Below, piece by piece: positions 11,937-61,580 of a stretch of 64,000 nt of DNA (position 1 is the stretch's first letter; each line of letters starts with the position of its first letter). This stretch comes from an uncultured Candidatus Saccharibacteria bacterium (GTDB taxonomy: Bacteria; Patescibacteriota; Saccharimonadia; Saccharimonadales; JACDBH01): NCBI GenBank assembly GCA_964490245.1, contig CAZBAF010000001.1, positions 25,149-89,148 on the forward strand, given 5' to 3'. The notes under the pieces were generated by a model. The model ran no database searches. It was not told where the DNA came from and was given only the letters and a program-made list of their open reading frames with translations. Position numbers and translations under genes: made by a program.

Positions 11937-11946
11937 TGTCCGAGTT

Positions 11947-34832: not shown

Positions 34833-35015
34833 ATTTTATGTAGTAACACTTCATCTTAATAGCGAAGCACCCCGTAGTTAGTAGGCATGAAATAGCGAAT
34901 AAAAAACCATAGCCACTCCCAAAGGGGTAAGTGTTCGATAAATCAGAGTATATGGTCGGGTTGGCGAATGTATAAACCCCTTGTGGTATAATTCGATGAA
35001 ACAGGGGAAGAGGTA

Positions 35016-35603: not shown

Positions 35604-35778
35604 CAGGGGTAATACTTGACAAAGTGCACGTAAGTGTGCTACAATAAAAAGATAGGCCCTTTGCGTGCCAGGCATCTCTTATCCAAAACCAGCCCAAAAG
35701 CCGTTCTGTTCATAACACCAAATCAGCGCCCCGGCTTTTTATTTATAAAGACCGGTAACGTATAATAAAGACCAATAT

Positions 35779-38503: not shown

Positions 38504-38942
38504 GCATCCTCAACTAAGCCAAGAGGTAGGTGTGGTGTCCGCGGATGTGCAATCGCTAGGCGAAGCAGCCGGCTGTTTGTTGAGTGATTTTCCGGGTGTA
38601 GCTGACGAGGTCAAGTCTATTATTGAGTCTGATGCACCGACGGAGGTGAGTGCTTTTCAGCTGGAGGTGCTTCGCTGGGATCTTGAGCGCCGGCGTGACG
38701 AGATTTTTGCCGACGTCGAGCCAGAGGAGCTGTCACCCTGGACACCGGCGTTGCCACAGTCCGTATCCCAGTCCGAACTTATAGACCGCATAACACCGCG
38801 GCAGCTGGCTACGGGCGCCAGCTGCTTGTTCCTGGCCGGTGCTTCGATAGGGCTGGCCAGCGGCGAGTATGACCAGGCCGGCCGGGCCGGTATGATCGCA
38901 GCGTTTTTGTTGGGAATCAGCAGCTTTTTAAAGAAGAATTAG
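38487..38942 (+). CDS. hypothetical protein with C-terminal TM helices
   Basis: 151-aa ORF overlapping the tig end by 17 nt. Acidic N-terminal part; GASCLFLAGASIGLA and MIAAFLLGISSF are hydrophobic. Confidence 0.5.
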   Translation: MQEPNKHPQLSQEVGVVSADVQSLGEAAGCLLSDFPGVADEVKSIIESDAPTEVSAFQLEVLRWDLERRRDEIFADVEPEELSPWTPALPQSVSQSELIDRITPRQLATGASCLFLAGASIGLASGEYDQAGRAGMIAAFLLGISSFLKKN

Positions 38943-39668: not shown

Positions 39669-40048
39669 CTGCTCTCATGGCTCTTGACTCATGTCCCGTA
39701 ACTCTGTAAACTATACAGTAGAAGTAGTGTAGGTAGCTGCTCGTGATATTTAACGCGTATGAATATCGCCAAAAAGTATGCTCCTAGTGATCCTTCGGCC
39801 GAAACAACTAAAGCGCTAAAACAGATACAAAAGCAGTACAATTTATCAACAGATTCGCAGCTTTTTGCGCTTGAGACAGATTCAGTGCGGTAACACGGAA
39901 TGTATGTAAGCCGTACGTAAGTATCGACTGCATATACCGGTCGGAACCACGCCGAATATGACCAAGAGGCTGCCAGATGGCGGCGGCTTTGCCGGCGACA
40001 TGTCAGCGGGCGCAAAAGTTTGCGACTTAAGTGGGAGTAATTTTGAAT

Positions 40049-43745: not shown

Positions 43746-47579
<3,834 letters not shown>

Positions 47580-47608
47580 GGTCTCTATTAAACAAAAACC
47601 CTACGAAG

Positions 47609-47635
47609 AGGCGCCCTTACCGGGCGCTTTTTCTT
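47609..47635 (+). terminator. rho-independent terminator after rpoC
   Basis: GCGCCC-ttacc-GGGCGC followed by TTTTTCTTTT. Confidence 0.85.
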
Positions 47636-47917
47636 TTACCCTCTAACAACAGGTTTCATTTTTTGTGTCCAAAAAACCAGCTTTTTCATGAGTTTGCAAC
47701 CAGTGTGCTTCATCAGTTTTTACAAAACCGAGAGAAGGGCAGAAGCCCGCTAGGGGGGACGTTCTTCGCCGCCTGTTCCGACCACTATCTACTGCCTGCC
47801 AACTGCTTAGTCAACCCTCTCTCCGCACTTCTAGCTCTCAACCTCTACCACTTCCGACCGCTCAGATTCCTCTCATGCTTGCAATAAGTGATAAATTGAC
47901 ATAACGTTAACATAATT

Positions 47918-48508
47918 ATGATACAAAGCTACCCTGTTAGCTATCGGTTGGATAATAGTAATGAAGTCCTTGAGGCCTTAAGCTACGACCCGATGACTGC
48001 CATTACCGAAATTCAGACTGAGCTCGCTTTGACTGACTGCGGTTTAGCGATTATTGCTGCAGCAGATTTGCTCACAACTGGCATTCAGGATCGAGCAGAG
48101 CTATACAAGCACAACGCTTTTACCACTGCAGGCATCATAGCCTGCGGTGCCTTTATGGAATCGGATGCCCCAGCTGAACTTCGTAACCACACGCTCTCTG
48201 CTTTATCTATGCGAAGCGCCCCCATTAACCTGCTCTCAGATAAGTCAGAGGAAACGCTAAGGGCTTTTGAGGAGCTGTCGGATAATGGCCACGCCGCACA
48301 TCCGGAGTTTGGGCCACATACGAGGATTGTCGTGGAATACTATACAGAGGTCACGCAAAATACGGCAATCGGAAGATGCGCTTTCTTGGGCGCAGGATAT
48401 ACGCTCTATCAGCTTGACCGGGCTTGGGATAGGGCGCGGGATGTCGGCATTGATAAAATTGTCAAAGAAGAAACAGCCAAAGCCGACTGGGACAAGTTGC
48501 TGCAATAA
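47918..48508 (+). CDS. hypothetical protein
   Basis: 196-aa ORF and the first gene of the island. No motif recognised. Confidence 0.5.
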   Translation: MIQSYPVSYRLDNSNEVLEALSYDPMTAITEIQTELALTDCGLAIIAAADLLTTGIQDRAELYKHNAFTTAGIIACGAFMESDAPAELRNHTLSALSMRSAPINLLSDKSEETLRAFEELSDNGHAAHPEFGPHTRIVVEYYTEVTQNTAIGRCAFLGAGYTLYQLDRAWDRARDVGIDKIVKEETAKADWDKLLQ

Positions 48509-48582
48509 AGCTGTGCGGCCCATGCCCATAAGCTTGGCGATCTAAATAAAGACAGAGTAGTATAACTCATGGAGGGTTGTGT

Positions 48583-48883
48583 ATGGGCGATCTGGTAAAG
48601 CTACAGCAGAAGGTAGTGGCATTCAGAGATGCACGCGAATGGAAACAGTTCCGGATATAGCTCTGTCGCTCGTGCTGGGGCCGCGGAGGTACTGGAGCAC
48701 TTCCAATGGAAATCACCGGATGAGATAGAAAGGTATCTGGAGTCAAATAGACAAGACTTCGCCGACAAGCTGATAGATGTGTTGTAGTGGGTACTTGTCA
48801 TGGCTCATGACTTCGATATTGATATACACCGAGTTATAAACTATGCAAACAGCAGTCATTATCAAGCCAAACGCAAAGCATAA
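48583..48883 (+). pseudogene. decayed MazG-like nucleotide pyrophosphohydrolase
   Basis: A GGAGGG Shine-Dalgarno precedes ATG 48583, which gives MGDLVKLQQKVVAFRDAREWKQFRI*. MazG-like sequence continues in two other frames: DIALSLVLG, then AAEVLEHFQWKSPDEIERYLESNRQDFADKLIDVL*WVLVMAHDFDIDI. This implies frameshifts near 48650-54 and 48677-81 plus an in-frame TAG at 48785-87. Confidence 0.7.
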
Positions 48884-49067
48884 GGAAGAAGTGATTCAGG
48901 CTGATGACGGCAGTCTGGTTGTTTATACCAAAGCGCCGGCAATCGAGGGCAAGGCAAATCAGGCAGCAATTGAGCTGCTTGCCAAGCATTACGGCGTCAG
49001 CAAAAGCCAAATACAACTCCTCCGCGGCCACACGTCCAAAAGAAAAATTTTCAAGATAAATATGTAG
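48843..49067 (+). CDS. DUF167 (YggU-like) family protein
   Basis: 74 aa: IIKPNAKHKEEV...LVVYTKAPAIEGKANQAAIELLAKHYGVSKSQIQLLRGHTSKRKIFKI, matching the DUF167 pattern. Confidence 0.75.
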   Translation: MQTAVIIKPNAKHKEEVIQADDGSLVVYTKAPAIEGKANQAAIELLAKHYGVSKSQIQLLRGHTSKRKIFKINM

Positions 49068-49185
49068 CACTCACCGCGTCAGCCAAGAATGTGACTTATA
49101 TAATTAATGCCAAAAGTGCTTGATTTTGGGTTTAAATGAGCGTATTATCCCATGTTCGCCTGTAAGCGAACCCAGAAAGAGGACT

Positions 49186-49566
49186 ATGTCTTTATTAAAT
49201 AAGTATCAAGAAATCAAAAACAATCCACGCGCTGGCGGTTACAGCGATATCCGCATGTGGCCCTGCTATGTGGCACTTTGTTTGAGTACCCTATTTTTCG
49301 CGCAGTGGTTGGGGTTGTTTTGGAGCTTTACCGTTATAGGTTTGCCAGTATTTGCTATTAGCTTACTGGCTGTAGGCATACATAAGCCAGAGAAAGCACC
49401 CATCAAATCCTGGAAGATGTACGAAGCTATCGAGCAAAAGAATAGGGAATTTGAACGCAGTAATTACCTATTACGCCGCAACATGAAGATTATCCAAGAA
49501 GACGAGCGGATCGTGCGCCAGCTCAAGAAGGCAGACCGCGTCCACCGAAACGCACGCAGCGCCTAG
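49186..49566 (+). CDS. small membrane protein, hypothetical
   Basis: AAAGAGGA Shine-Dalgarno before ATG 49186. Two TM helices, then a basic helical tail. Confidence 0.55.
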   Translation: MSLLNKYQEIKNNPRAGGYSDIRMWPCYVALCLSTLFFAQWLGLFWSFTVIGLPVFAISLLAVGIHKPEKAPIKSWKMYEAIEQKNREFERSNYLLRRNMKIIQEDERIVRQLKKADRVHRNARSA

Positions 49567-49616
49567 CGGATGGTATGTAAAGATAGTAGAATATGGCTAA
49601 AGATTAGGAGCAAATT

Positions 49617-51434
49617 GTGGACGGGTTCAGTGCCGATATTAAAGACGAGCAATACAAAAAACTTAAAGAATTATTCCCAGAAGTTTTTTCAGAAGGAAAG
49701 ATAGACTGGGATAAGCTAAGGGCTACACTTGGCGAGCATATAGATTTTAGCGAACGCTACGGCCTAAGCTGGAAGGGTAAGTCCGGCGTCTTTGCCAAGA
49801 TTCAGGAAAAAACCGTCAGCACCCTCCATCCGCAGCGCGAAGAATCGGTTGATTGGGACGCGACCGGGAACATGTTCATAGAGGGCGACAACTTAGAGAC
49901 TCTCAAGGTGCTCCACAAAGCCTACTACGGCAAAGTCAAGATGATTTACATTGATCCGCCGTACAACACGGGCAATGACTTCATTTATAGCGATAGCTTC
50001 AAACAGTCCCGCCGCGATTACGAAGAAGAGGCCGGTCTGGTTGATGAAGAAGGTAACACCACACGCGACGATGGCATGCGCGTCAATTCCGGCGGCAACA
50101 AGCACAGCAATTGGCTGAATATGATATACCCACGTCTGTGGCTCGCAAAGAACCTTTTACGGCAAGATGGCGTGATCTTTATCAGTATTGACGGCAACGA
50201 AGTCCATAACCTCCATCTCATCATGAACGAGATTTTTGGGGAAGAGAATTTTGTTGGTATTTATGTCAAGCAATCAAAAGTTGGCGGTGGAAGCGATTCT
50301 CGTCACATTGTCCAGGAGCACGAATACTGTGTGGTATATGCGAAAAGTGTTAATGATCTTCCTGATATGTATATAGAGCACAGCCCTGATTACTTGAAGC
50401 GGTATAAAGAAAAGGATGAGAAGGGTAGGTATTTTTGGGATACGTTTGCACGACCGGGGCTAAAAAATCCAATTTACTATGACATAGCATTACCAGATGG
50501 AACGGCAGTGAATAAGGGCTGGATATGGAGTAAGGACAGATTTGAAAGAGGGATTAAATCTGGTGAGGTAGTGATACGTCAGACGACGAAAGGTAGTTGG
50601 GGTGTATATTTTAAGCAAAGGCTTAATGAGAGCGGGAAGAAGCCGCGTTCATTAACCATGGATTTTGGAGGTACGGCACAGGGTAAGATAGATACTGGCT
50701 CGCTTTTTGATAACGTATCTATGTTTGAGTATCCGAAGTCGGTTAAATACATCAAGGAGTTAATCCGCACGATAGGCGATAAGGAAGCTGTAATTCTAGA
50801 CTTCTTCTCTGGCTCAGGCACGCTCGCTCACGCTGTGATGGAGCTCAATGCTGAAGACGACGGCAACCGCAAGTGGATTTGTGTGCAACTGCCAGAACTG
50901 ACCGACAAAAAGAGTGAAGCATATAGGGCTGGCTATAAGACCATTGCCGAGATTGCTCGCGAACGCATCCGCCGCGCCGCCAAGAAAATAGCCGAGGGTT
51001 ACAAAGACAAAATTGCTGAGCGCGAGACGCCACTTTATCTTGGTTTCCGCTCGTACGTCTTGGGTGATAGTAACTTCAAAAAGTGGAATGAGCTGGTACG
51101 CGACCCAGAAGAAATTCGCCAGCAGACTTTGGAGCAGATAGATCCAATTGAGCCAGGCGCTTCTGATGAAGATTTGCTAACCGAAATCCTGCTCAAGCAC
51201 GGCATTTCACCACTTGCCAAACTGGAGCAGCATGACGGCTTTATCTACGTGCCGTCAGACAATCTGGCAATTTCACTGACGCACAACATGACAAAAGAGC
51301 TGTTCAAGTCCATGCTCGCCAAAAACCCAAGCCAAATCATCGTACTAGACATGGCGTTTAGCGATGATTTAAACCTAAAAACCAACCTATCTCTGCAAGC
51401 TGAACAGAGAAACATCATCCTGGAGGTGTTGTAA
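49617..51434 (+). CDS. mod: type III restriction-modification DNA methyltransferase (Mod), beta-class N6A/N4C
   Basis: AGGAG Shine-Dalgarno (49606-10) precedes the GTG start. Motif IV IYIDPPYNTGNDF lies upstream of motif I VILDFFSGSGTLAHAV, with a variable region between them, which is the Mod order. 605 aa. Confidence 0.88.
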   Translation: MDGFSADIKDEQYKKLKELFPEVFSEGKIDWDKLRATLGEHIDFSERYGLSWKGKSGVFAKIQEKTVSTLHPQREESVDWDATGNMFIEGDNLETLKVLHKAYYGKVKMIYIDPPYNTGNDFIYSDSFKQSRRDYEEEAGLVDEEGNTTRDDGMRVNSGGNKHSNWLNMIYPRLWLAKNLLRQDGVIFISIDGNEVHNLHLIMNEIFGEENFVGIYVKQSKVGGGSDSRHIVQEHEYCVVYAKSVNDLPDMYIEHSPDYLKRYKEKDEKGRYFWDTFARPGLKNPIYYDIALPDGTAVNKGWIWSKDRFERGIKSGEVVIRQTTKGSWGVYFKQRLNESGKKPRSLTMDFGGTAQGKIDTGSLFDNVSMFEYPKSVKYIKELIRTIGDKEAVILDFFSGSGTLAHAVMELNAEDDGNRKWICVQLPELTDKKSEAYRAGYKTIAEIARERIRRAAKKIAEGYKDKIAERETPLYLGFRSYVLGDSNFKKWNELVRDPEEIRQQTLEQIDPIEPGASDEDLLTEILLKHGISPLAKLEQHDGFIYVPSDNLAISLTHNMTKELFKSMLAKNPSQIIVLDMAFSDDLNLKTNLSLQAEQRNIILEVL

Positions 51435-51435
51435 C

Positions 51436-52392
51436 GTGCAGGTTGTGCGTGTTCAGGAATCAAAAAGAGGGAACAGCTACATTATTAAGACTCTTAAAGA
51501 TAAAAAAACGATTGTATCTCGTGCTATTATTATGTTTTCGCCTGGCGGAAAATCATTGAAGCTTGGTCGTTATTATAAAGATAGCGGTAAGCTTGTGTCT
51601 AATTCTCCAAAAAGTGAACTAACCCTAGACGATGATGAGCTAAAAAATCTTGTTAAGCATCTTGCAGATAATTATCGTTTAGTATTGCGCAATCCGGGTT
51701 CATATATTAAGACTGACGATGCGTTGGATGAGGAGTTATTGCGCAAATTAAAATTCATCTTTACAAGCAAAAAACGAGATGATGTGATTAATTTTCTTTC
51801 AAATAATCCGTTTTTGCCTTCTGACATAGAGAATCTATTGGAGATCAAAAGAAGACAAAAGGCAGTAGAAGAATTTCGTGCCAAGCTAAATACTAACGAA
51901 ACTGAATATGAGTGGCAGAAATGGTTCTCTGAAAACGACTGGGTACTAGGAAATGATTATGCGGAAATATTAGAAGAAAGGCAGATTAATACGCGAAACA
52001 TTGCCGATTTTTTGGTGCGTGATTTCGATGGATTTGTTGACTTGATAGAGATTAAGCGGCCAGAAGGTGGCTTATCATTCTGGGCTAGTCAACGTGATCA
52101 CGGCAATCTAGTTCCCCATAGCGACTTAATAAAGGCAATCACTCAGGTACAAGTATATCTATACGAATTAGAAAAAGAGCTGGATAGCATTACGACGCAA
52201 CAGCGCTTGTCAGGTGCGTCCATAATCAAGCCTCGTGCTACTTTGATATTTGGCCGCTCATATGATTGGAGTGATGACGAAAGAAATGCGTATCGCATTC
52301 TGAACGCCAGCTATTCCAATATATCCATACTGACTTATGATCACGTATCAAGAAGGGCACAGAAATTAATTATGAAGAAAGAAAAACAATGA
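51436..52392 (+). CDS. DUF4263 (Shedu SduA-type) PD-(D/E)xK nuclease-domain protein with unrecognised N-terminal domain
   Basis: GGAGG (51422-26) precedes GTG 51436, which is 1 nt after the mod stop. C-terminal half: ETEYEWQKWFSENDWVLG, then ADFLVRDFDGFVDLIEIKRPE (D..D..ExK, nt 52006-52065), then RATLIFGR...NISILTYD. Its stop overlaps the res ATG (ATGA). Confidence 0.75.
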   Translation: MQVVRVQESKRGNSYIIKTLKDKKTIVSRAIIMFSPGGKSLKLGRYYKDSGKLVSNSPKSELTLDDDELKNLVKHLADNYRLVLRNPGSYIKTDDALDEELLRKLKFIFTSKKRDDVINFLSNNPFLPSDIENLLEIKRRQKAVEEFRAKLNTNETEYEWQKWFSENDWVLGNDYAEILEERQINTRNIADFLVRDFDGFVDLIEIKRPEGGLSFWASQRDHGNLVPHSDLIKAITQVQVYLYELEKELDSITTQQRLSGASIIKPRATLIFGRSYDWSDDERNAYRILNASYSNISILTYDHVSRRAQKLIMKKEKQ

Positions 52393-55169
52393 AACTCCAA
52401 TTTGAACCGAACCAGCAGTATCAGCTAGATGCCATCAAAACAGTTGTTGATGTGTTTGAAGGCCAGCCGAAGGATAAGGGCGGGATTGTGTTCGGCGGTC
52501 AAGGCGAGCTGGATTTACCTGGCAAACAGTTAAGCCTTGAAGACGCCAGTGCGAGCGGCAATACACTAGTGTTAAGCAATGAGCAGCTTATTAAAAATGT
52601 TCATGCTGTGCAAGGCCAGCTTGATCTTCCGCTGGCTGAAGTGATCGACGAGGACGATGTGCTTACAACCGAATCAGGTGAGCCAAATGTAACCGAAGAT
52701 GGCGATCCGCTGGAAGCTTCTTTGGGTTCAAGTTTAATGCATGGCCTTAACTTCTCCATTGAAATGGAAACCGGCACAGGCAAAACCTATGTGTACTTAC
52801 GCACAATCCATGAGCTATACCAAAAGTACGGCTGGAAGAAGTTTATTATCGTTGTACCGAGCGTGGCGATCCGCGAAGGCGTGCTGAAAAACTTAGATAT
52901 CACGCGTGAGCATTTTGCTGAGCTGTACAACAAGCCCGAGATGAATTATTACGTTTGGGATAGCAAAAAGACCGGCCAGGCGCGTGAATTTGCCGTCAAC
53001 GATACACTGCAAATCATGGTCGTCAACATTGACAGTTTCTCTAAAGCTGAAAACATCATGAACAAAGACAGCGATTACGGACGGCCGCTTGATTTTATCC
53101 GCGCTACCCATCCGATCGTTATTATTGACGAGCCGCAGAATATGGAAACCGAGGTGCGCCGCAAGGCTATAAACAGCCTGAACCCGCTTTTTACTTTGCG
53201 CTACAGTGCTACTCACAAGCATGTCTATAATTTGCTGTATCGTTTAACACCGGTAGATGCGTATAACCTGGGGCTGGTTAAAAAGATTGAAATCCATAGT
53301 GTGGTGAGTGAGGACAGCTATAACGGTCCGTATATCAGCGTGCTTTCGCTAGAGCGGACAAGCAAGCGGAGTTCATACACCAAGATTGAAGTTGATGCAA
53401 GTGACAAGCGTGGCTTGCAGCGCAAAGTTGTTAAAGCTGGCCCGGGCGTAGATTTAGCACAACTGACGGGGCGCTCTGTGTATGAAGGCTTTTACATTGA
53501 AGCTATAAATCACACCGAAAACTGCGTGGAGTTTAGCAACGGCAAAAAGGTATATGTCGGTCAGAAAGATGAAGCATTGCGCGAAGAAATCCTGAAACGG
53601 CAGATTGAGTTGACCATAGAGGATCATTTTGAAAAGCAGCAGAAGCTGGCCAGTCAGAACATAAAGGTGCTAAGCCTGTTCTTCATAGACAAGGTGGCGA
53701 ATTACCGCGAGTACACCGAGGCTGGTTGGACAAAAGGTAAGTTCGCGCGCTGGTTTGAAGAGCTGTATGAGAAGGTGGCCGCCAAATATCCCGGCGTCAT
53801 AGATGACCTGACGGCCGAACAAGTACATAACGGCTACTTTGCCGCCGATAAGAGCGGCTATTGGAAGGATAGTAAAGACACTAAGGGTGAAGGCGCCAAG
53901 ACGAAGGACGATGACACGGCATACCAACTGATTATGAAAGACAAAGAGCGGCTATTGGATATCAACGAACCGTTAAGGTTCATCTTTAGCCACTCTGCGC
54001 TGCGTGAGGGCTGGGATAACCCGAACGTCTTTAACATCTGTACGCTCAATGAGACATCAAGCGAGATGAAAAAGCGACAAGAGATCGGCCGCGGCCTACG
54101 CTTGCCGGTCAATGCCAATGGCGAGCGAATTTATGACGAGAACATCAATGTGCTTACGGTGATCGCAAACGAAAGTTATGAAGAATTTAGCCGCAAGCTG
54201 CAGACCGAGATTACTGAAGAAACGGGCGTTGAATTTAGTAAGGGCAACATCAAGAACCGTGCTGACAGGCAGAAAATCAGCTTCCGCAAATCTGTAATGC
54301 TAGATCCGAACTTTAAAGAGCTCTGGGAACGTATCAAACACAAGACGACGTATCACATAAACATTGGTCCGGATAAGCTAGTTGATGAGGTCGTACGGCG
54401 ACTTGAAGATATGGCAATCGTGCCGCCGCAGATTTCTGATACGCGAACGCTGATTAGTCACATGGGTGAGACGTTTGAAAGGAAGAAGCAGGAAGGCTTG
54501 GATCGTGCAAGCCGTTCGGGCGTGCAGCACGTGCCCAATATCCTTGAAGAAATTCAAAAACGCACGCACCTGACGCGCAAGCTAATCTTTGAAATCCTTG
54601 ACCGCGCAGATATATTCTCGTACCTGGCGCTCAATCCGCAGCAGGCTGTTGACGGAGTAAGCGAGGCGGTTATACAAATCAAGCAGCAGCTTGCAGTTGA
54701 CGGCATTAAGTATGAGCGCACCGGCGACGTGTACGATGTAAGGCTGTTTGAGAATGAAGAGCTTGAAAGTTACTTGTACAACGCTATGAGCAAGAATGGT
54801 GCAGTCAAAGCGGAGCAAGAGGACAAGACAACCTATGACTACGTCGTGGTGGATTCTGATGTAGAGTATCAACTCATGAATGTTTTGGAGAACACGGACA
54901 GTGTGAAGTTTTATACCAAGCTCCCAGGCTGGTTCAAAATTGATACGCCGCTTGGTACATACAATCCTGACTGGGCGATCGTGTTTGAGGACGACAAAAA
55001 GATTTACTTCGTCGCCGAAACGAAAGGAACGGATAATCTGTATGACGAGTCGTTACGCGAACACGAGCGCGGCAAGATCAAGGCAGGCCGGAAGCATTTT
55101 GAGGAAATCGGCATGCCTTATGCTGCGCCGGTTTCATCGCTCCAAAGTGCACTGCGTAAGCTGATATAG
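52389..55169 (+). CDS. res: type III restriction enzyme Res subunit (SF2 helicase plus C-terminal endonuclease)
   Basis: 926 aa. N-terminus MKLQFEPNQQYQLDAI, Walker A METGTGKTYVY, motif II VIIDEPQNM, SHSALREGWDNPNVF, and a C-terminal nuclease YNPDWAIVFEDD..IYFVAETKG. Confidence 0.88.
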   Translation: MKLQFEPNQQYQLDAIKTVVDVFEGQPKDKGGIVFGGQGELDLPGKQLSLEDASASGNTLVLSNEQLIKNVHAVQGQLDLPLAEVIDEDDVLTTESGEPNVTEDGDPLEASLGSSLMHGLNFSIEMETGTGKTYVYLRTIHELYQKYGWKKFIIVVPSVAIREGVLKNLDITREHFAELYNKPEMNYYVWDSKKTGQAREFAVNDTLQIMVVNIDSFSKAENIMNKDSDYGRPLDFIRATHPIVIIDEPQNMETEVRRKAINSLNPLFTLRYSATHKHVYNLLYRLTPVDAYNLGLVKKIEIHSVVSEDSYNGPYISVLSLERTSKRSSYTKIEVDASDKRGLQRKVVKAGPGVDLAQLTGRSVYEGFYIEAINHTENCVEFSNGKKVYVGQKDEALREEILKRQIELTIEDHFEKQQKLASQNIKVLSLFFIDKVANYREYTEAGWTKGKFARWFEELYEKVAAKYPGVIDDLTAEQVHNGYFAADKSGYWKDSKDTKGEGAKTKDDDTAYQLIMKDKERLLDINEPLRFIFSHSALREGWDNPNVFNICTLNETSSEMKKRQEIGRGLRLPVNANGERIYDENINVLTVIANESYEEFSRKLQTEITEETGVEFSKGNIKNRADRQKISFRKSVMLDPNFKELWERIKHKTTYHINIGPDKLVDEVVRRLEDMAIVPPQISDTRTLISHMGETFERKKQEGLDRASRSGVQHVPNILEEIQKRTHLTRKLIFEILDRADIFSYLALNPQQAVDGVSEAVIQIKQQLAVDGIKYERTGDVYDVRLFENEELESYLYNAMSKNGAVKAEQEDKTTYDYVVVDSDVEYQLMNVLENTDSVKFYTKLPGWFKIDTPLGTYNPDWAIVFEDDKKIYFVAETKGTDNLYDESLREHERGKIKAGRKHFEEIGMPYAAPVSSLQSALRKLI

Positions 55170-55186
55170 AATAAGATTCTAGACAA

Positions 55187-55696
55187 TCAACGAAATATTA
55201 GGGAAAATATGCGGTCGCTGAGGTTTTGGTGGTAGGTTCTGCCATAATAGTTTTTAGTCTTCAGGGATTTGGGTTTTGAAAGTTGGGCAATGGGTATTTT
55301 GCCAGGCAAGGGCGCGCTACACTTGCGGATCACATTTGGGCTGATGATTTTATACCAATTCTTTCCTTCGGTTGTGAAAAGATAGATATACTTAGTATGG
55401 TAATGGCGCGCTGTAATGCACATGCGCTTTGCAATGCCTTTAGTCAAGTCTTTGCGGTATTGCTTGACTTCAATAATTGCACGGGCTGTGCGGCCAAAGT
55501 CGTCAACAGCCAGTTCAAAGTCTGGTGTGTATGTTTTTCCAACATGTTTGATGCCAAGCTGTGGCCTTAGCCACTGGCCGCTGAAATTATACTTGGTGAT
55601 AAATTGCTCGAGAGCCTTGAACTCAGTTTTTGAATCAAGCCATACAGTCTGGCCATCAATAGTGACCTGGTGCCTGTGTCCTCTCCTATAAGCCAT
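55187..55696 (-). CDS. stand-alone PD-(D/E)xK nuclease, TnsA-endonuclease-N-like
   Basis: 169 aa: LDSKTEFKALEQF...GKTYTPDFELAVDDFGRTARAIIEVKQYRKDL resembles the TnsA N-terminal catalytic pattern (E...PDF...D...EVK). No tnsB or tnsC nearby. Confidence 0.5.
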   Translation of the reverse strand: MAYRRGHRHQVTIDGQTVWLDSKTEFKALEQFITKYNFSGQWLRPQLGIKHVGKTYTPDFELAVDDFGRTARAIIEVKQYRKDLTKGIAKRMCITARHYHTKYIYLFTTEGKNWYKIISPNVIRKCSAPLPGKIPIAQLSKPKSLKTKNYYGRTYHQNLSDRIFSLIFR

Positions 55697-56059
55697 GCCC
55701 GGATTATCTCTATAAATAGCTTGTTTTGCAATATCCTAAGTTTAGGAGGGTAAAGGAGCGAGAAAGGTCAACTAAGCAAAGATACGAAAGCTACAGAAGA
55801 CCGCGAGACCAGGGTGAGTCATGCAATATTCTCTAAAACTACTAATAAGTGTTACGGGGGTAACAGTTATTTATAATTTATGGGGACACGCTTTTGCGCT
55901 GGAGTTGCTGTGAGGAAATGTCAAACTGTGGTAGAGGGTTCTAGATCGTGTCCGGCACGTCAAACACTTGTGGACAGTGAAATGCCACGTTAAAAAACTG
56001 CGCTTATGCTTGCAGAGGAGAGACTGGATCTTAACAAGCAATAATTTCGTAAAAACAGG

Positions 56060-56455
56060 TCAGTTTTCTTTGGACCTGTTGATCTCGACACCTTGCCGCA
56101 CAAGATCGGACAGTGCATCTTCGTCCACACGCGTACCTTCTTTAAACTCGATGGCGCGGTCGGTGCTGCTTTTAAGCCGGGCATTAAAGAGTTCTGACGG
56201 GTCTTTCATGAAAGCACCTTTGACAAAAACCAGCTTGATATTATCCTTAAAGGTCTCTGCCAAGCAGACATTGCCGTTAGACGTCCAAACGGGCAGTCCT
56301 TCGGGCCGGGTGGGCATCTTCCATTTGATCTCTTCAGTAATTTCCGTCGAGGCGGTCGTTATCACACGGCGCAGCCACGACAGAGTCTCACCCTTCCAGC
56401 CGCCGTATAGTTTGATAATGTCATCGATCTGTTCTGATGCCGGTTTGTCTGCCAT
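56060..56455 (-). CDS. DUF1801 (YdhG-like) domain protein
   Basis: 131 aa: LRRVITTASTEITEEIKWKMPTRPEGLPVWTSNGNVCLAETFKDNIKLVFVKGA. The hairpin AACAGGTC/GACCTGTT (56054-56080) spans its stop codon. Confidence 0.65.
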   Translation of the reverse strand: MADKPASEQIDDIIKLYGGWKGETLSWLRRVITTASTEITEEIKWKMPTRPEGLPVWTSNGNVCLAETFKDNIKLVFVKGAFMKDPSELFNARLKSSTDRAIEFKEGTRVDEDALSDLVRQGVEINRSKEN

Positions 56456-56577
56456 GTCATGTCCTTTTTAAGTATGCTTTTTTATTCTACACCCAATGGA
56501 GAGTGTTCGAAGTGCTGACAAGACACATGCTTCCTAAGCGGCTGCATTCGGCGTGCATTTGTAGCATAATAGACACT

Positions 56578-57027
56578 ATGAATGATGATCAGAATATGCA
56601 GATAGCCATTGACGAAGCCCGCACCGCGCTTATGGGAGGCGGCATACCGATTGCAGCCTGCCTGGCAGACAGTCAGGGAAAAGTCATTGCCGTTGGCCAT
56701 AACGAGCGTGTGCAGAAGGGCGACCCGATTGCCCACGGCGAAATCGCCTGTCTGCGTAACGCTGGCCGGCAGAAAAGTTACGCCGGTTATACGCTCTACA
56801 CCACGCTCAGTCCGTGTGCCATGTGCCGTGGTGCTATTGAACTGTTTAAAATCCCGCGCGTGGTCGTAGGCGAAAACGAGACTTTTGCCGGTGATTTGGA
56901 CAAACTGCGTGCCACCGGCGCCGAGGTGGTGCTGCTGGATAGCGAAGACTGCAAACGAATGATGCGCGAGTTTCAGGCCAAGCATCCTGATATATGGAAC
57001 GAAGATATCGGAATGGCGACTACCTAG
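56578..57027 (+). CDS. cytosine deaminase, FCY1/CDA-fold type
   Basis: 149 aa from ATG 56578: GGIPIAACL...GHNERVQKGDPIAHGEIACLRNAG...TLYTTLSPCAMCRGAIELFKIPRVVVGEN...DIWNEDIG. This resembles yeast Fcy1-type cytosine deaminase closely; HxE and PCxxC zinc ligands are present. Confidence 0.75.
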   Translation: MNDDQNMQIAIDEARTALMGGGIPIAACLADSQGKVIAVGHNERVQKGDPIAHGEIACLRNAGRQKSYAGYTLYTTLSPCAMCRGAIELFKIPRVVVGENETFAGDLDKLRATGAEVVLLDSEDCKRMMREFQAKHPDIWNEDIGMATT

Positions 57028-57075
57028 TTCGGCTTACTTGATGCCGTTTATGTAAATGCGGGCCCTAACAGTCTG

Positions 57076-58596
57076 CTATGACTTGTTTGTGCGGTTGCTG
57101 CCAGCTTCTTGATCGACAGCATGTGGCCCGGCAGTCTCTGCCGATGCGCCCAGAGCCAGCCGGGCAATACGACTGTGCTTACGACCGGCCTTCAGTTGCG
57201 CCAGCATAAAATCAACGAACGGTGTGATGTTGCGCATCCGAACAGAACGCTGATTAAACGGACGTGCCAGCATGTTGCCGAACGACGCCCCGGCCGCTAT
57301 TGCAAGCGCGGTTGTAAAAGCTGTTAAAAGCGTACCGACACCCTTAAAAAACAGCGGGTCGCCCGGCGGATAATTAACCAGCTGCATCAGGCCGTTATAT
57401 AAGGCAAGACCGGGCACCAGCGGAATAATACCAGCGGCAATGCTGCCCGAGGCGGGGGTGTGCCAGATCCGTGACAGAGTCTTGGCCAGCACGCCGACAA
57501 TCAGCGCCGCTATACCACTGGCCGGAACAACAGAGATACCAAAATCCCGAACAGTATAAAGCACCGTGACTGCCACGCTGCCCAGCAGTCCGGCCCATAT
57601 CACTGCCCGCAGACGCGTATGCCCGACCAATGCAAAAGAAGCCGAGGCAATGCCGCCGCCGATAATTCTATACCGCAGCCCGGTCAGGCTCAGCGGCTCG
57701 GCAGAAACAGCAATGCCAATACCAAGCTTGCGTGCTACATACAGACCGATCAGCACACCCATCACAATGCCCGAGGTCAGCATCAAGACTTTCAATATCC
57801 GGGCGTTAGCTGTGACATAGTATTCATCAATTGCATCCTGGATCGCACCAACAATAGCCAGACCTGACAAGAGCATAATAATACCGCCAACAACGACCAA
57901 AGTCGGGTTTATACCCTCAAAAAAACTCACCCCGTTGTCGGCAAATGCGTTCACCACAGCCGCAGAAATTGTCACTACACACGCCGCGGCAGCCTGCCGA
58001 AAGAACGTGGTCAGTGCGTTTTTATAGAGAAAACTCATGAACTGCTCAACCAGGTACGCAATCACAAACGTCACCAGCAGTATCCGCCAGTTGGTTGTAA
58101 ACATCAGGCCGACACCGGTGGCAATGCCGGCAGCCGCCAGCGGATGCAGCCAGGCCGGATAGGCTGCCGGCTTTTTGAGAATGTTTTCAAGCTCTTTTTC
58201 GGCCGCTGATAGCTCGAGCCGACCCGACCTGATCCGATAGACTAGATCCTGTATGGCCTGCACAGTCATATTATTAACCGGGCGTGCCACCGACGGCCTA
58301 ATGAGTGTCAGCGGCTCTTTCTCCACACCCCTTAGCTGCGACAACATAATCAGGTTCGAGACAATATCAACGTGCACCGGCTGCCTGCAGTACGTTTCGG
58401 TAATATCAAGCGCCTTGGATACCACATTCGCGGCCGGAATATTCATAGAGAGCAACTGATCACTGACGGTCAGCGCCAAGCGCAAAGCGCGCAGATTGGG
58501 GCTCAGGGTCTCGCCGGCTTTTTCCGGTCTTAGCCCACCCAGCTGCGTTTCTGTATCTGTATGCTGTTTTAGTTTCAGCCAGTTTTGTAATCTCAT
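57076..58596 (-). CDS. threonine/serine exporter family protein (ThrE-like, DUF1212 plus DUF3815)
   Basis: About 10 TM helices. The N-terminal soluble region, LRLALTVSDQLLSMNIPAANVVSKALDITE, is typical of the family. Start ATG 58596 is preferred; the ORF-track start is 58653. Confidence 0.7.
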   Translation of the reverse strand: MRLQNWLKLKQHTDTETQLGGLRPEKAGETLSPNLRALRLALTVSDQLLSMNIPAANVVSKALDITETYCRQPVHVDIVSNLIMLSQLRGVEKEPLTLIRPSVARPVNNMTVQAIQDLVYRIRSGRLELSAAEKELENILKKPAAYPAWLHPLAAAGIATGVGLMFTTNWRILLVTFVIAYLVEQFMSFLYKNALTTFFRQAAAACVVTISAAVVNAFADNGVSFFEGINPTLVVVGGIIMLLSGLAIVGAIQDAIDEYYVTANARILKVLMLTSGIVMGVLIGLYVARKLGIGIAVSAEPLSLTGLRYRIIGGGIASASFALVGHTRLRAVIWAGLLGSVAVTVLYTVRDFGISVVPASGIAALIVGVLAKTLSRIWHTPASGSIAAGIIPLVPGLALYNGLMQLVNYPPGDPLFFKGVGTLLTAFTTALAIAAGASFGNMLARPFNQRSVRMRNITPFVDFMLAQLKAGRKHSRIARLALGASAETAGPHAVDQEAGSNRTNKS

Positions 58597-58680
58597 GCGT
58601 ATAGATCGTGTGCCGGTACCGGCTCTGCCTTCAGTATAGCCAGGGGCTATCACAAAAACCAGGGCGGAGATTTTTTATCA

Positions 58681-58708
58681 GTGTTAAGTTATTAGTGGTT
58701 AGTGTTTA
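58681..58708 (-). repeat. degenerate heptad array, TAANCAC family (as read on the minus strand)
   Basis: Plus strand reads gtgttaa gttatta gtggtta gtgttta; minus strand reads taaacac taaccac taataac ttaacac. It lies upstream of the minus-strand ThrE-like gene. Confidence 0.65.
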
Positions 58709-58810
58709 GGGGTGCGGAGAAGAAAGCTAACAGTAGCTAGTCGTTAATAAGAGCGGCAGCAGCCATCGTTTCTGATAAAATACCAAACCATAAGTAAGCA
58801 GGGGCGAACT

Positions 58811-59230
58811 ATGGACGAAAAACAGCAAATCACCGTATCGGCAACTATTCAGGCTCCAGCAGAGAGGGTCTGGGAATATTATGTAACACCCGAGCACCTG
58901 ACAAGGTGGAATAACGCCTCAGATGACTGGCACACCACCAACGCTACCAGCGATCTGCGCGTTGGCGGCGAGTTCAAATATCGCATGGAGGCAAAAGACG
59001 GCTCTGAAGGTTTTGATTTTGGCGGCACCTACACAAAGGTCGAACCGCCGCGACTGCTTGCCTATACGCTCGGGGACGGACGCACGGTTAACATAACTTT
59101 ATCACCGGAAGGGGATGCGACACAGGTAGCCGTCACTTTTGATACCGAAACATTCAACACACCCGAAGTACAGCGTCAAGGCTGGCAGGCAATCCTGGAT
59201 AACTTCAAAAAGTACGTTGAGAAAAACTAA
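58811..59230 (+). CDS. SRPBCC superfamily protein (AHSA1/START-like)
   Basis: 139 aa: ITVSATIQAPAERVWEYYVTPEHLTRWN...GGEFKYRMEAKDGSEGFDFGGTYTKVEPPRLLAY...GWQAILDNFKKYVE. Confidence 0.75.
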   Translation: MDEKQQITVSATIQAPAERVWEYYVTPEHLTRWNNASDDWHTTNATSDLRVGGEFKYRMEAKDGSEGFDFGGTYTKVEPPRLLAYTLGDGRTVNITLSPEGDATQVAVTFDTETFNTPEVQRQGWQAILDNFKKYVEKN

Positions 59231-59358
59231 CTAAGGCTAAGATCGTCATGACTAAAAGAGGGCAAGCAGCTCATCGTCCTGGACTGGAATTAGTACGATC
59301 CCAAATTTGATTGATCGTGTCTTTGCTTGCTATCTTGCGTGCATAAGGGAGGCGAGAG

Positions 59359-59640
59359 ATGGCTGCAGAAGAACAATTTGCATGTTCTGATTCTACATTA
59401 AGGCTACCGATTGATGCGGGCGCTGAACCTATGGATTACATAAAACAGTGCAAAAATAGATATGAAAATCCTGGTGGTTCATGCCGCTTCGCCCAGGCAG
59501 CACTTCGTGATAGCGCGTCGCTGGAGCATATTGTTCAGGACTGCCCGGCGTTCATGAAAAAAATGCATGCTCAAGGCGCACCTACAGAGATAAAATGTGC
59601 CATCCAACTTATAGGGTTCGCTAGCGCAACAAACGACTAA
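59359..59640 (+). CDS. hypothetical protein (Cys-containing, 93 aa)
   Basis: A strong Shine-Dalgarno GGGAGG lies 7 nt before the ATG. No motif recognised. Confidence 0.5.
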   Translation: MAAEEQFACSDSTLRLPIDAGAEPMDYIKQCKNRYENPGGSCRFAQAALRDSASLEHIVQDCPAFMKKMHAQGAPTEIKCAIQLIGFASATND

Positions 59641-59740
59641 GCTCACTTGATGCTGTAAGGTAATCAGTCAACTTATATAATTCATCGTTTAAGTTCGTCT
59701 GTTCACGGCCGCATTCATGAACTTACAGTTCGTGGGCATC

Positions 59741-59858
59741 GGCTTTTGGCTTGAGCAGATGTCAAGCAGACGCTTTTAGGCAAAGCTCAACCCGAGTCTC
59801 TTGACACACTTTCCTACGCCCCACTTGGCGGACCAGGAAAGTGTGTCGGCCAAAAGCC
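59741..59858. other. nested inverted repeats predicted to form a three-stem structure (about 118 nt)
   Basis: Outer pair GGCTTTTGGC (59741-50) / GCCAAAAGCC (59849-58). Pair TTGAGC (59751-56) / GCTCAA (59785-90). Inner pair GACACACTTTCCT (59803-15) / AGGAAAGTGTGTC (59835-47), with CGCC/GGCG in its loop. Confidence 0.6.
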
Positions 59859-60054
59859 TAATAATCAGGACTTTACCGAAATATCCTAATAAAAAATAAA
59901 GCCCCTCACTTTTCATAAAGCCTATATCTTGCTTCAGATAACCATATCTGTTAAAATACCTACTGGCATTAACGAGTTTAATTCAGCAATCTAGGGGAGG
60001 CTGGCTGCTGCCAGATTAACTCTTCTCGACAACGATTTAAAGAAAGGAATCACA

Positions 60055-60468
60055 TTGCCTACAATTAACCAACTCGTCCGTAAGCCGCGCAAGTCTGCCA
60101 GCTCCAAGAGCAAAAGCCCTGCGCTGCATAAAGTGACGAACAACCTCAAGACCAAGTCATACGAAAAACCATCGCCTTTTAAGCGCGGTGTTTGTATCAA
60201 GGTCACAACCAAAACACCAAAGAAGCCAAACTCAGCGCTTCGTAAAGTTGCCCGTGTCCGTCTGAATAACGGCCATGAAGTCTGGGCCTACATCGGTGGC
60301 GAAGGTCATAACCTGCAGGAACACGCAGTCGTTATGATCCGCGGTGGCCGCGTGCCGGATCTTCCCGGTGTGCGTTACCACATTGTCCGTGGCGCGCTCG
60401 ACCTCCAGGGTGTTGCCAACCGTAAGCGTGGCCGCAGCAAGTACGGCACCAAGAAGGATGGTAAGTAG
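60055..60468 (+). CDS. rpsL: 30S ribosomal protein S12
   Basis: TTG start follows [19 protein letters not shown]...[28 protein letters not shown]...[23 protein letters not shown]. Confidence 0.96.
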
Positions 60469-60479
60469 TCACTATGTAT

Positions 60480-60528
60480 CATTTACCCTTTACCAATTGC
60501 CATTTACCAATTAATTTGCATTTGCCAT
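60480..60528 (+). repeat. degenerate heptad array, CATTTAC/CAATTGC family
   Basis: catttac cctttac caattgc catttac caattaa tttgcat ttgccat, directly after the rpsL stop. Confidence 0.65.
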
Positions 60529-60555
60529 TTATCAAAACCGCGACCCCGTCGCTGC

Positions 60556-60590
60556 CACAATTGAAAACTGAAAATTGTGAATTGAAAATT
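60556..60590 (+). repeat. degenerate heptad array, GAAAATT family
   Basis: (acaatt) gaaaact gaaaatt gtgaatt gaaaatt, 24 nt upstream of the rpsG ATG and before the GAGGAG Shine-Dalgarno. Confidence 0.7.
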
Positions 60591-60613
60591 GCAAGTCCCA
60601 GAGGAGTTGCCTA

Positions 60614-61090
60614 ATGCCTCGTAAAGTAACCAAAGCCCTCGTCCGCGAGGCCGCACCGGATCGTGTATATAACAGCCAGCAGGTAACTCGTGTTATTAAC
60701 CGCGTCATGCGTGATGGTAAAAAGCAAGTTGCCGAACGCCTTGTGTACAAGGGCATAGAGAAAGCCGCCAAGAAGGTAAAAAGCGATAATCCGCTGGAAG
60801 TCTTTGAAAAGGCTATGAACAACATCAAGCCGCATCTTGAGACCCGCTCCCGTCGTGTCGGTGGCGCAAACTACCAGATTCCGTTTGAGGTCAAGGGCCA
60901 GCGCCAGCACCACCTGATGACCATGTGGTTTGTGCAGGCTGCACGCTCACGCAAGGGCATGAGCATGGAAGACCGCATCGCACAAGAAATCGTCGACGCC
61001 TTCAACAACACCGGCGCAGCCGTCAAGAAGCGTGAAGACGTCCACAAGATGGCCGAATCTAACCGTGCCTTCGCACACTTCGCGAGATAG
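60614..61090 (+). CDS. rpsG: 30S ribosomal protein S7
   Basis: 158 aa: MPRKV...PDRVYNSQQVTRVINRVMRDGKK..AERLVY...RRVGGANYQIPFEV...EIVDAFNNTGAAVKKREDVHKMAESNRAFAHF. Confidence 0.96.
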   Translation: MPRKVTKALVREAAPDRVYNSQQVTRVINRVMRDGKKQVAERLVYKGIEKAAKKVKSDNPLEVFEKAMNNIKPHLETRSRRVGGANYQIPFEVKGQRQHHLMTMWFVQAARSRKGMSMEDRIAQEIVDAFNNTGAAVKKREDVHKMAESNRAFAHFAR

Positions 61091-61093
61091 ACA

Positions 61094-61510
61094 ATGCCTG
61101 ATCTGTGCTCCGGCTGCCCGCTACCCCGTGTCATCGAAGAGATTAAGGACGCAGCCGAAACACAGGAACAAAAAATTGTTGTCGGATTCTTAGAGTTACT
61201 AAGAACAGTCTATGAAAATGGCGATCCGGACTCTTATACGGGGCCTAAGACAGAAGAGCACCTTGAGGAATTGGCATGTGTTAAAATCACCGAATGCTGT
61301 CAAGAAGAGGCGCAGCTGGACAACATAGACCCTTTCATCATTGCAATGGAAGGCCTTGTCACCACAAAAAGGCTGACCGTAACAGGTTCCAGTAAAGATG
61401 GCGCCGCCCGGGAGAGAATAGCGTACGAGACCCTTGTAAGCGGTCAACTGGTAGAGACATATGAATATTTTGAAATCCCCGAGAAACAAGATGATGGCAA
61501 CGATGGATAA
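61094..61510 (+). CDS. hypothetical acidic Cys-containing protein inserted between rpsG and fusA
   Basis: 138-aa ORF whose ATG lies 3 nt after the rpsG stop. It is AT-richer than the flanking genes. No motif recognised. Confidence 0.5.
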   Translation: MPDLCSGCPLPRVIEEIKDAAETQEQKIVVGFLELLRTVYENGDPDSYTGPKTEEHLEELACVKITECCQEEAQLDNIDPFIIAMEGLVTTKRLTVTGSSKDGAARERIAYETLVSGQLVETYEYFEIPEKQDDGNDG

Positions 61511-61580
61511 AAAGGCAAGTGTAGCATGGGGGCATATTACCCTGATGCGCTTCAGTAACTAAGCAACTAAGAGGATAGAA

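Follow-up and report, generated by a model that had tools for sequence, protein, structure and literature searches.

A 64,000-nucleotide stretch of DNA from an uncultured Candidatus Saccharibacteria bacterium (contig CAZBAF010000001.1 of assembly GCA_964490245.1, positions 25,149 to 89,148 of the forward strand; hereafter the window) carries about 12.3 kb of accessory DNA between rpoC and rpsL, genes that in most of the related genomes compared are separated by a few hundred base pairs at most. We consider it likely that this DNA is a mosaic island without mobility genes, probably assembled in at least two steps, in an intergenic spacer that varies across the phylum. Its core is an apparently intact Type III restriction-modification (R-M) operon in which sduA, encoding a Shedu nuclease, lies between mod and res. 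Members of the phylum live as ultrasmall epibionts, and their streamlined genomes measure about 1 Mb. Outside the island the window has a G+C content of about 0.54 and holds housekeeping genes, among them those for DnaE, PBP1, a Clp ATPase, RecG, HisRS, trigger factor and ClpP.

The insertion was recognized by comparison with GTDB species-representative genomes matched by the C-terminal 399 residues of RpoC. This search found 356 relatives, and the best 80 matches supplied the related loci compared here, nearly all of them labelled Candidatus Saccharibacteria or Saccharimonadales; the close relatives are all metagenome-assembled genomes (MAGs). Spacer statistics refer to the 75 loci that hold both rpoC and rpsL. 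Proteins were scanned against Pfam, NCBIfam, PADLOC and PHROGs, and RNAs against Rfam. The flanks and boundaries of the insertion are the following:

43746-47579, + strand: rpoC, the left conserved flank (open reading frame (ORF) of 1277 amino acids (aa); C-terminus 69-84% identical to RpoC at the 80 loci)
47605-47640, + strand: intrinsic-terminator-like hairpin with U-tract (12-bp stem, pairs 47605-47633, -20.8 kcal/mol, z -4.5)
59803-59847, + strand: hairpin in the final non-coding stretch (13-bp stem, -29.9 kcal/mol, z -4.5)
59920-60054, + strand: native rpsL leader with promoter-like region, marking where the insertion ends on its right side
60055-60468, + strand: rpsL, the right conserved flank (PF00164, 1.1e-35; 81-94% identical to RpsL of relatives)
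60614-61090: rpsG, downstream of rpsL
61581-63665: fusA, downstream of rpsG

From the rpoC stop at 47579 to the rpsL start at 60055 the gap measures 12,475 bp, so the 12.4-kb separation read from the letters alone in a first-pass annotation is essentially right in its coordinates. The genes to the left (tig-clpP-rpoB-rpoC) and to the right (rpsL-rpsG-fusA) follow the same order in the relatives, where the gap never exceeds 8,471 bp and has a median of 164 bp and an interquartile range of 130-265 bp (75 relatives). The gap in the window is thus larger than in all 75 and holds the largest insert seen, and the break in conserved rpoBC/rpsL-rpsG-fusA synteny claimed in the same annotation is borne out. 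When window proteins were searched against the 80 loci by tblastn, requiring a match to span at least half of the protein, none of the island proteins matched at any locus; relatives holding the same genes in the same interval, which would have spoken for an ancestral region, were not among them.

Nucleotide homology with the relatives picks up again at 59920-59946 and none was seen after the rpoC stop, which places the inserted DNA at about 47580-59920. The island limits proposed earlier (47636-60054) need correcting on the right, since the native rpsL leader begins at about 59920-59946. By eye, the last ~110 bp before rpsL hold a leader motif, ATCTGTTAAAAT...AATTCAGCAATC...CGACAAC...AGGA, also present in the spacers of close relatives. 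In 36 of the 75 relatives, several of them with insertions of their own, a -10-like TGTTAnAAT occurs roughly 100 nt 5' of rpsL; in the window it is at -106. The insert is positioned upstream of this putative promoter element, and insertions so placed would leave the str operon its own promoter. The terminator previously assigned to rpoC was recovered as the hairpin at 47605-47633 with its 12-bp stem and U-tract; the short rpoC-rpsL spacers of several close relatives are without it, so it may be native or imported. The strong hairpin at 59803-59847, in the 300 bp of non-coding DNA that separate the last island ORF from the rpsL leader, is not followed by a U-tract and had no Rfam match. A consensus promoter and terminator scan returned counts equal to the shuffled expectation, missed the rpoC hairpin and was set aside. 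The right junction is included in an independent assembly, the Logan contig L099, which is 100% identical to 58543-60159; two further Logan contigs, L081 and L098, are 100% identical to 50681-52518 and 47787-48858, respectively, and the three come from two sequencing runs.

The rpoC-rpsL spacer varies repeatedly among the relatives and qualifies as a hotspot. It measures at most 500 bp in 62 of the 75 loci and more than 500 bp in the other 13, with seven above 1 kb and three above 3 kb, and two more contigs extend 2.4-3.0 kb beyond rpoC without reaching rpsL. The cargo differed in each occupied relative examined:

L004: histidine kinase
L015: likely GIY-YIG gene (by eye)
L017: an unknown protein of 1101 aa and a helix-turn-helix protein
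L045: histidine phosphatase, with a weak, sub-threshold 2H-phosphoesterase-like match
L053: three large unknown proteins
L068: IspH and a likely Nudix/IDI gene

Composition sets the island apart from its surroundings and also divides it internally. Its G+C content is 0.475, vs 0.543 for the rest of the window, and ranges from 0.405 to 0.548 at the 1-kb scale. Tetranucleotide L1 distance to the background in 2-kb windows averages 0.332 in the island vs 0.225 ± 0.031 outside it. For these tests the window outside the island served as background, and each tested stretch was set against 300 random segments of the same size. Values by segment, with G+C at third codon positions (GC3) for the genes, were:

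48-56 kb, in 2-kb windows: tetranucleotide correlation with the background 0.2-0.5 (background about 0.8-0.9)
56-59 kb, in 2-kb windows: correlation 0.81-0.82 (background about 0.8-0.9)
49.1-55.7 kb (6.6 kb, the R-M segment): L1 0.337 (maximum of 300 random segments, 0.182)
Right 4.2 kb: L1 0.201 (maximum of 300 random segments, 0.206)
Left 1.5 kb: L1 0.340, borderline (maximum of 300 random segments, 0.359)
Background genes: GC3 0.62 ± 0.06
sduA: GC3 0.354 and G+C 0.381, both the lowest in the window
Mod target-recognition region: GC3 0.425
mod and res overall: GC3 0.53-0.57
DUF1801, cytosine deaminase and ThrE genes: GC3 0.59-0.61 (DUF1801 0.591)

The island proves to be a mosaic rather than a single foreign block. 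Its core at 48-56 kb is compositionally foreign, and its right part at 56-59 kb, with the cytosine deaminase and ThrE genes, is native-like in composition; atypical composition was found in the former and not in the latter, and the distribution of the island genes is sporadic (0 of 80 loci). The first-pass annotation had proposed a horizontally acquired island with AT-richer patches of 25-52% G+C. The insertion and the foreign core at 48-56 kb uphold the first of these claims, which is not supported for the native-like 56-59 kb and is borderline for the left 1.5 kb; the composition test it named gives the same split, with the R-M segment deviating strongly (L1 0.337 against a maximum of 0.182) and the right 4.2 kb within background. 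The lower G+C is likewise real, the figure of 25% is not, as the 1-kb minimum is 0.405 and the lowest gene, sduA, has 0.381.

The core consists of three co-oriented genes:

49617-51434, + strand: mod, Type III R-M methyltransferase (PADLOC MTase_III, 4e-186; PF01555, 4e-29)
51436-52392, + strand: sduA, Shedu nuclease, DUF4263 (PADLOC SduA PDLC00385, 7e-107; PF14082, 1.2e-22)
52389-55169, + strand: res, Type III restriction subunit (PADLOC REase_III, 1.8e-276; PF04851, PF00270, PF19778)

A spacer of 1 nt separates the mod stop from sduA, and sduA overlaps the start of res by 4 nt. Mod carries DPPY at residue 113 and FSGSG (FxGxG, S-adenosylmethionine (AdoMet)-binding) at 397, and Res carries GTGKT, DEPQ and a C-terminal PD...ExK at 860-879. 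Mod, Res and the order of their genes, with mod first and co-oriented, are those of a Type III system, and the middle gene departs from the two-gene canon. Against the NCBIfam equivalog PRK15483 Res scores 339 bits, below the cut-off of 564, which suggests a distinct subfamily of Type III endonucleases. SduA matches PDLC00385 over its full length (residues 17-315) and PF14082 with 81 bits (cut-off 27); a D...ExK motif, DFLVRDFDGFVDLIEIK, lies at residues 191-207 as its putative catalytic site. In the window and in its nearest homologues sduA is not a stand-alone gene, being embedded and apparently translationally coupled; embedded Shedu genes are documented, so this lowers the claim to a stand-alone system and not the homology. 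On these features the core is apparently an intact and apparently functional Type III mod-sduA-res operon, with the enzymatic activity of its products predicted from sequence. By homology with characterized Type III systems, Mod would methylate one strand of a short asymmetric site, and an ATP-driven Res-Mod complex would locate and cut DNA bearing unmethylated sites. The embedded PD-(D/E)XK nuclease Shedu could then be a second effector on the same invading DNA, acting for example on free ends made by Res, or alternatively a backup when phage DNA escapes restriction.

The three genes appear not to share one history. Res has thousands of homologues, the best 120 at 64-71% identity, one of them from TM7 genomosp. 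GTL1 and many on contigs of 0.6-1.1 Mb, as long as an entire Saccharibacteria genome; taking Mod and Res together there are many relatives, at 56% and 65-71% identity, respectively, some of them named Saccharibacteria or TM7. Mod and Res thus probably belong to a gene pool that includes Saccharibacteria, and much of the 'foreign' DNA may be of intra-phylum origin. The closest Res loci examined, L082 (71%) and L083 (69%), each with Mod at 56%, lie at other genomic positions. Their nucleotide homology with the window covers 49586-50256 and 50777-51433 in mod and reaches about 55122 overall; it leaves out the middle gene and the Mod target-recognition region (~50257-50776), which is not conserved with the closest relatives. 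Since this homology ends at 49586 and at ~55122-55169, the R-M module occurs without the rest of the island. Between mod and res, these and other operons hold the following:

L082, 7849-10004: genes for proteins of 468 aa and 249 aa
L083, 8950-10004: genes for proteins of 109 aa and 242 aa
L092, 2019-2969: sduA, 58% identical, in a mod-sduA-res operon
L093 (L093/L094), 8001-8987: sduA, 53% identical, in a mod-sduA-res operon
L097 (IMG/VR contig, Res relative at 48%), 6997-8004: YhcG/DUF1016 PD-(D/E)XK nuclease, PADLOC candidate PDC-S02

The res-adjacent proteins of L082 and L083 show a weak HEPN resemblance and are unrelated to sduA. The operons of L092 and L093/L094 have the same tight junctions as the window, with identities to the window proteins of just 21-41% for Res and 31-43% for Mod. 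Close Res proteins thus accompany unrelated slot genes, and close SduA proteins accompany distant Mod and Res, so the histories of backbone and cassette differ. The G+C content of sduA is below that of the adjoining mod and res in all three sduA operons measured, and the middle genes of L082 and L083 are likewise lower than theirs. SduA relatives at 46% identity from JGI metagenomes follow Type I hsdM-hsdS or AAA_21/RloB genes; the scan of those metagenomes with SduA gave four loci, none above 46% identity and none with a related mod or res. No SduA homologue exceeded 58% identity, the few named ones come from other phyla, and on plasmids the best relative reaches 37% identity across 67% of the protein, which gives a plasmid origin no support. 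Taken together, these comparisons indicate that the mod-res junction behaves as a slot for different accessory nuclease genes and that sduA is probably a separately travelling, lower-G+C cassette.

Nothing in the island resembles machinery for its own mobility. Pfam, NCBIfam and PHROGs scans of the island proteins revealed no integrase, transposase, relaxase, TnsB/C or phage families, and none of seven small island proteins matched PHROGs. The island holds no tRNA (the sole tRNA of the window is at 34062), and Rfam gave no match at E <= 1 over 47000-61700. Searches for flanking repeats found only short pairs at chance level and none at the island ends; among them is a 15-nt imperfect direct repeat at 49094 and 59671, which is AT-rich; by our estimate, chance alone would give about four pairs of this kind in 13.5 kb. 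The features of a classical integrase island (an integrase, a tRNA or tmRNA target and flanking repeats) are therefore missing, and so are those of a Tn7-like element, with TnsA_N sub-threshold and no transposase or AAA+ partner in the island. Viral relatives amount to the single IMG/VR contig with Res at 48%. The statement in the first-pass annotation that no integrase, tRNA or flanking repeat could be found agrees with the family scans, the tRNA scan and the repeat search, including the check for attachment-site repeats that it had suggested.

To the left of the R-M operon and directly to its right lie smaller genes:

47918-48508, + strand: hypothetical gene, 196 aa (GC3 0.508), also on Logan contig L098
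~48583-48835, + strand: MazG-like nucleotide pyrophosphohydrolase pseudogene (two frameshifts, three frames; in-frame TAG at 48785-48787)
48843-49067, + strand: DUF167 (YggU family) gene (PF02594, 1.8e-20; TIGR00251, 2.2e-21)
49183-49566 (start possible at 49120), + strand: small predicted membrane protein, its hydrophobic stretch read from the translation
55187-55696, - strand: predicted orphan PD-(D/E)XK-fold nuclease, 169 aa, of a small uncharacterized family

The 196-aa protein had no match in Pfam, NCBIfam, PADLOC or PHROGs and its gene was not found in IMG/VR contigs; the small membrane ORF had no family match in the Pfam and PHROGs scans. A pseudogene had been called here, and the repaired translation of the MazG-like sequence does match PF12643 (1.8e-7, 31.8 bits, cut-off 27) across its two frameshifts and TAG. 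The gene list of the first-pass annotation is right in substance, with the exception of a 'TnsA-like nuclease', the label given to the 169-aa ORF. This ORF reaches only 16 bits against the TnsA_N Pfam (E 0.017; cut-off 26.5), and TnsA is not among the best 50 Foldseek PDB matches listed for its AlphaFold2 model (predicted local distance difference test score, pLDDT, 93); a TnsA or Tn7 identity was rejected. The top-ranked fold matches are all restriction-endonuclease-like and weak (best 3ijm, E 4e-3). The family has 31 representatives among 1.84 billion proteins, and its invariant residues include E25, D59, E76 and K78, a restriction-endonuclease-like pattern. As modelled, the protein is only a generic PD-(D/E)XK nuclease. 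Its closest homologue (52%) is in a defence island at locus L095, where about 5 kb (8001-12977) hold this homologue, Pycsar-type genes (cyclase and PycTM), an SLFN-type helicase gene and an intact MazG-like gene. The latter overlaps the helicase gene, is 51% identical to the window pseudogene and lies about 4 kb from the nuclease homologue. With homologues of both in L095, the MazG-like pseudogene and the 169-aa gene would come from the same defence-island gene pool, and the pseudogene looks like what decay has left of an earlier system. As a separate observation, the pairing in L095 suggests a two-gene system of a MazG-like protein and a helicase.

The right-hand block is of another kind:

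56060-56455, - strand: DUF1801 protein (PF08818, 1.4e-17)
56578-57027 (mechanical ORF start 56437), + strand: FCY1-type cytosine deaminase (PF00383, 6e-23)
57076-~58596, - strand: ThrE-family threonine/serine exporter (PF06738, 4.9e-50; PF12821)
58811-59230, + strand: SRPBCC/AHSA1-family protein (PF08327, 9.8e-28)
59359-59640, + strand: hypothetical gene, 93 aa (GC3 0.383), on Logan contig L099

For the deaminase, the earlier assignment to the FCY1 type is supported by phmmer matches of 2.5e-37 to yeast Fcy1 structures such as 1uaq and 1p6o, compared with 2e-15 to TadA. The 93-aa protein had no family match in the Pfam and PHROGs scans. ThrE has 396 homologues at E <= 1e-20, the best of them 72-75% identical, and the named ones are from Saccharimonadales or Saccharibacteria. 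In the CAZXOA MAG, the source of L008, whose rpoC-rpsL spacer is 153 bp, ThrE is 66% identical and follows the atp operon and a MIP channel gene; this divergence resembles that of trigger factor for the same genome pair (68%). The right-hand block may be native DNA that moved within the genome, or it may stem from a related donor. ThrE also lies within about 10 kb of restriction or defence genes in three genomes, at L082 15993-17447 (Type III R-M), L085 10001-21461 (Eco57I-type and SNF2/PLD) and L086 10001-20017 (GmrSD, EcoRI methylase and SocA/Panacea), and may border a variable region in Saccharibacteria.

Several other spots in the window vary or look atypical. Within the str operon, the rpsG-fusA spacer (61091-61580) varies as well: in 60 relatives its median is 354 bp, it exceeds 1 kb in 10 and it reaches a maximum of 3,067 bp. 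In the window it contains an ORF at 61094-61510 (+ strand, 138 aa, G+C 0.477, GC3 0.475) without a Pfam or PHROGs match. The tRNA-Leu gene at 34062-34145 (+ strand) is followed up to 35700 by a low-G+C patch (G+C 0.44-0.52, tetranucleotide correlation 0.57-0.62) with minus-strand ORFs at 34254-34832 and 34878-35675 that match neither Pfam nor PHROGs; it may be a second small islet. Just 5' of rpoB, clpP is flanked by ORFs at 39689-40015 (- strand, 108 aa, with an atypical GC3 of 0.431) and 38487-38942 (+ strand, 151 aa). Neither had a Pfam match, only the 151-aa ORF was matched in relatives, by a single weak match (24%), and the spacers around clpP vary in length among relatives. Finally, small GIY-YIG-like ORFs of 95-139 aa (weak Pfam matches, one by eye) recur beside defence genes and may be selfish, homing-type elements:

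L083, 12769-13170
L085, 13808-14095
L086, 15138-15557
L015, 6295-6621 (in the rpoC-rpsL spacer)

How the island arose can be weighed against three other accounts. That the whole 12.3 kb is one mobile element, whether integrative, Tn7-like or a prophage remnant, gained in a single event, is very improbable. It would fit a contiguous block lying exactly within an intergenic spacer, with a PD-(D/E)XK nuclease of faint TnsA_N resemblance (E 0.017) and the 15-nt imperfect direct repeat at 49094 and 59671. The repeat is AT-rich, at chance level and away from the island ends, TnsA is absent from the best 50 fold matches listed, and the scans found no integrase, transposase, TnsB/C or relaxase and no tRNA. 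Composition and homologue affinities differ sharply by segment, and the R-M module is found without the rest of the island, its homology ending at 49586 and ~55122-55169. An assembly or binning artefact, in which foreign DNA was chimerically joined to a Saccharibacteria contig, is hardly credible. The close relatives are all MAGs, so this genome is probably one too, the composition of the core is unlike that of the flanks, and the left junction is without independent confirmation. Against this, the island is entered right after the rpoC terminator and left exactly at the rpsL leader with gene order kept, and synteny restored on both sides is not expected of a chimera. Logan assemblies from two runs reproduce 58543-60159, 50681-52518 and 47787-48858 at 100% identity, and Res and Mod have relatives (65-71% and 56%), some named Saccharibacteria or TM7.

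An account without any horizontal transfer, in which the relatives have lost an ancestral region or an internal rearrangement brought a native variable region here, is unlikely, if somewhat less so than the other two. The right-hand third is indeed native-like in composition, and its ThrE is a typical Saccharibacteria gene with orthologue-like divergence (66%, vs 68% for Tig, in the CAZXOA MAG); with ThrE near defence genes in three genomes, a 'ThrE plus defence' unit could have moved together. Short spacers, however, prevail across the 69-84% RpoC range (62 of 75 at most 500 bp), so that ancestry would need many independent precise deletions. The core at 48-56 kb is far outside background composition, the homologues of sduA are at most 58% identical, with the few named ones from other phyla, and the presence of a pseudogene and of orphan genes suggests DNA that was imported and is decaying.

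We therefore favour the mosaic island assembled in at least two steps. Around its core would lie debris and orphans of the defence-island pool, namely the MazG-like pseudogene and the lone PD-(D/E)XK nuclease, and its DNA may have entered by natural transformation followed by recombination, guided by the highly conserved rpoC and rpsL flanks. In competence work on Saccharibacteria, cloned DNA reportedly integrates by homologous recombination. Natural competence and recombination in Saccharibacteria are reported in one published study (PMC10633639) and its preprint. Given these reports, the absence of mobility genes and transfer that is mostly within the phylum, DNA uptake with flank-guided recombination in at least two steps would be the most economical route. 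Some observations weigh against this account. The recombination route is inferred only, with no recombination tract detected; the closest genome compared has about 84% RpoC C-terminal identity, which limits what can be said on the timing and number of insertions. The left junction falls outside the independent assemblies, as L098 begins at 47787, and the left 1.5 kb is inside the background range of composition, near its top. The Mann-Whitney p of ~4e-6 for the L1 difference is approximate only, because the 2-kb windows overlap. Only a few Res and SduA homologues carry organism names, and ten proteins (nine from the island and the 138-aa rpsG-fusA ORF) are all singletons at 90% clustering. The exact SduA sequence is in a two-member cluster, the exact RpsL and Res proteins have no record, and the exact SduA, 196-aa and 93-aa proteins were found on short Logan contigs alone. 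That Shedu and Res cooperate is speculative, and their co-location may just reflect selfish co-transfer.

A bolder extension is possible, though we hold it doubtful as a whole: the rpoC-rpsL spacer, and perhaps rpsG-fusA, would be a phylum-wide, integrase-free hotspot fed by natural transformation and recombination through the ultra-conserved flanks, and the mod-res junction of Type III operons a nuclease exchange slot whose occupants cooperate with Res, Shedu for example by attacking DNA ends made by Res. In its second half this proposal would make Shedu, YhcG/DUF1016 and HEPN-like cassettes, together with Res, a three-component restriction machine rather than a pair of systems that merely sit side by side.

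For a genome of about 1 Mb, 12 kb of accessory DNA between two highly conserved operons is a sizeable investment, and the island illustrates one way to gain defence and transport genes without recognizable mobile-element machinery. The rpoC-rpsL spacer is easy to locate in any MAG and could serve as a marker locus for accessory gene flux. As natural insertions seem to spare the promoter-like element of rpsL, it is also plausible as a neutral landing site in genetic engineering. Engineers should know that a resident Type III-Shedu operon would act as a barrier to transformation. The exchangeable middle gene makes cooperation between Shedu and the restriction enzyme directly testable. Current understanding is not overturned by what is a fairly ordinary patchwork. 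Two leads deserve a wider survey: whether the rpoC-rpsL and rpsG-fusA spacers are hotspots throughout the phylum, and the mod-res slot with its exchangeable genes.

None of the ingredients of the island is without precedent: hotspots flanked by core genes, Patescibacteria islands with R-M systems, and R-M operons with an embedded Shedu gene are all known. Like core-gene-flanked hotspots such as those of the E. coli pan-genome (PMC10121019), the rpoC-rpsL spacer has conserved flanks, is mostly empty and takes up varied cargo, in E. coli too in many cases without recognizable mobility genes. Unlike in E. coli, the cargo in other Saccharibacteria is mostly not recognizable defence, and the comparison here runs across species and genera rather than strains. 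A survey of Patescibacteria described islands including an R-M island, found most transfers to be within Patescibacteria and invoked competence (PMC12455944). Both that island and ours are compositionally detected, carry a complete R-M system and lie in a streamlined genome of the candidate phyla radiation; theirs is Type I and was predicted by IslandViewer, whereas ours is Type III with Shedu, mosaic, and delimited by synteny against 75 relatives.

The operon itself resembles EcoP15I and EcoP1I in the DPPY and AdoMet motifs and variable central target-recognition region of Mod, in the superfamily 2 helicase and C-terminal PD-(D/E)XK of Res and in having mod before res; unlike them, it has a third gene between mod and res, apparently translationally coupled to both. 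Such an arrangement has been described before: Gu et al. (bioRxiv 10.1101/2023.08.10.552793) report 602 Shedu genes within R-M systems, Type III included, and propose that Shedu complements R-M, so the association itself is not new. The window operon conforms to their description, with a DUF4263 nuclease gene inside an R-M operon and a full-length PADLOC SduA match. It differs in its host, a Saccharibacterium, a phylum not named in the part of their taxonomic breakdown covered here. For the window operon there is direct evidence that cassette and backbone have separate histories and that sister slots hold other nucleases.

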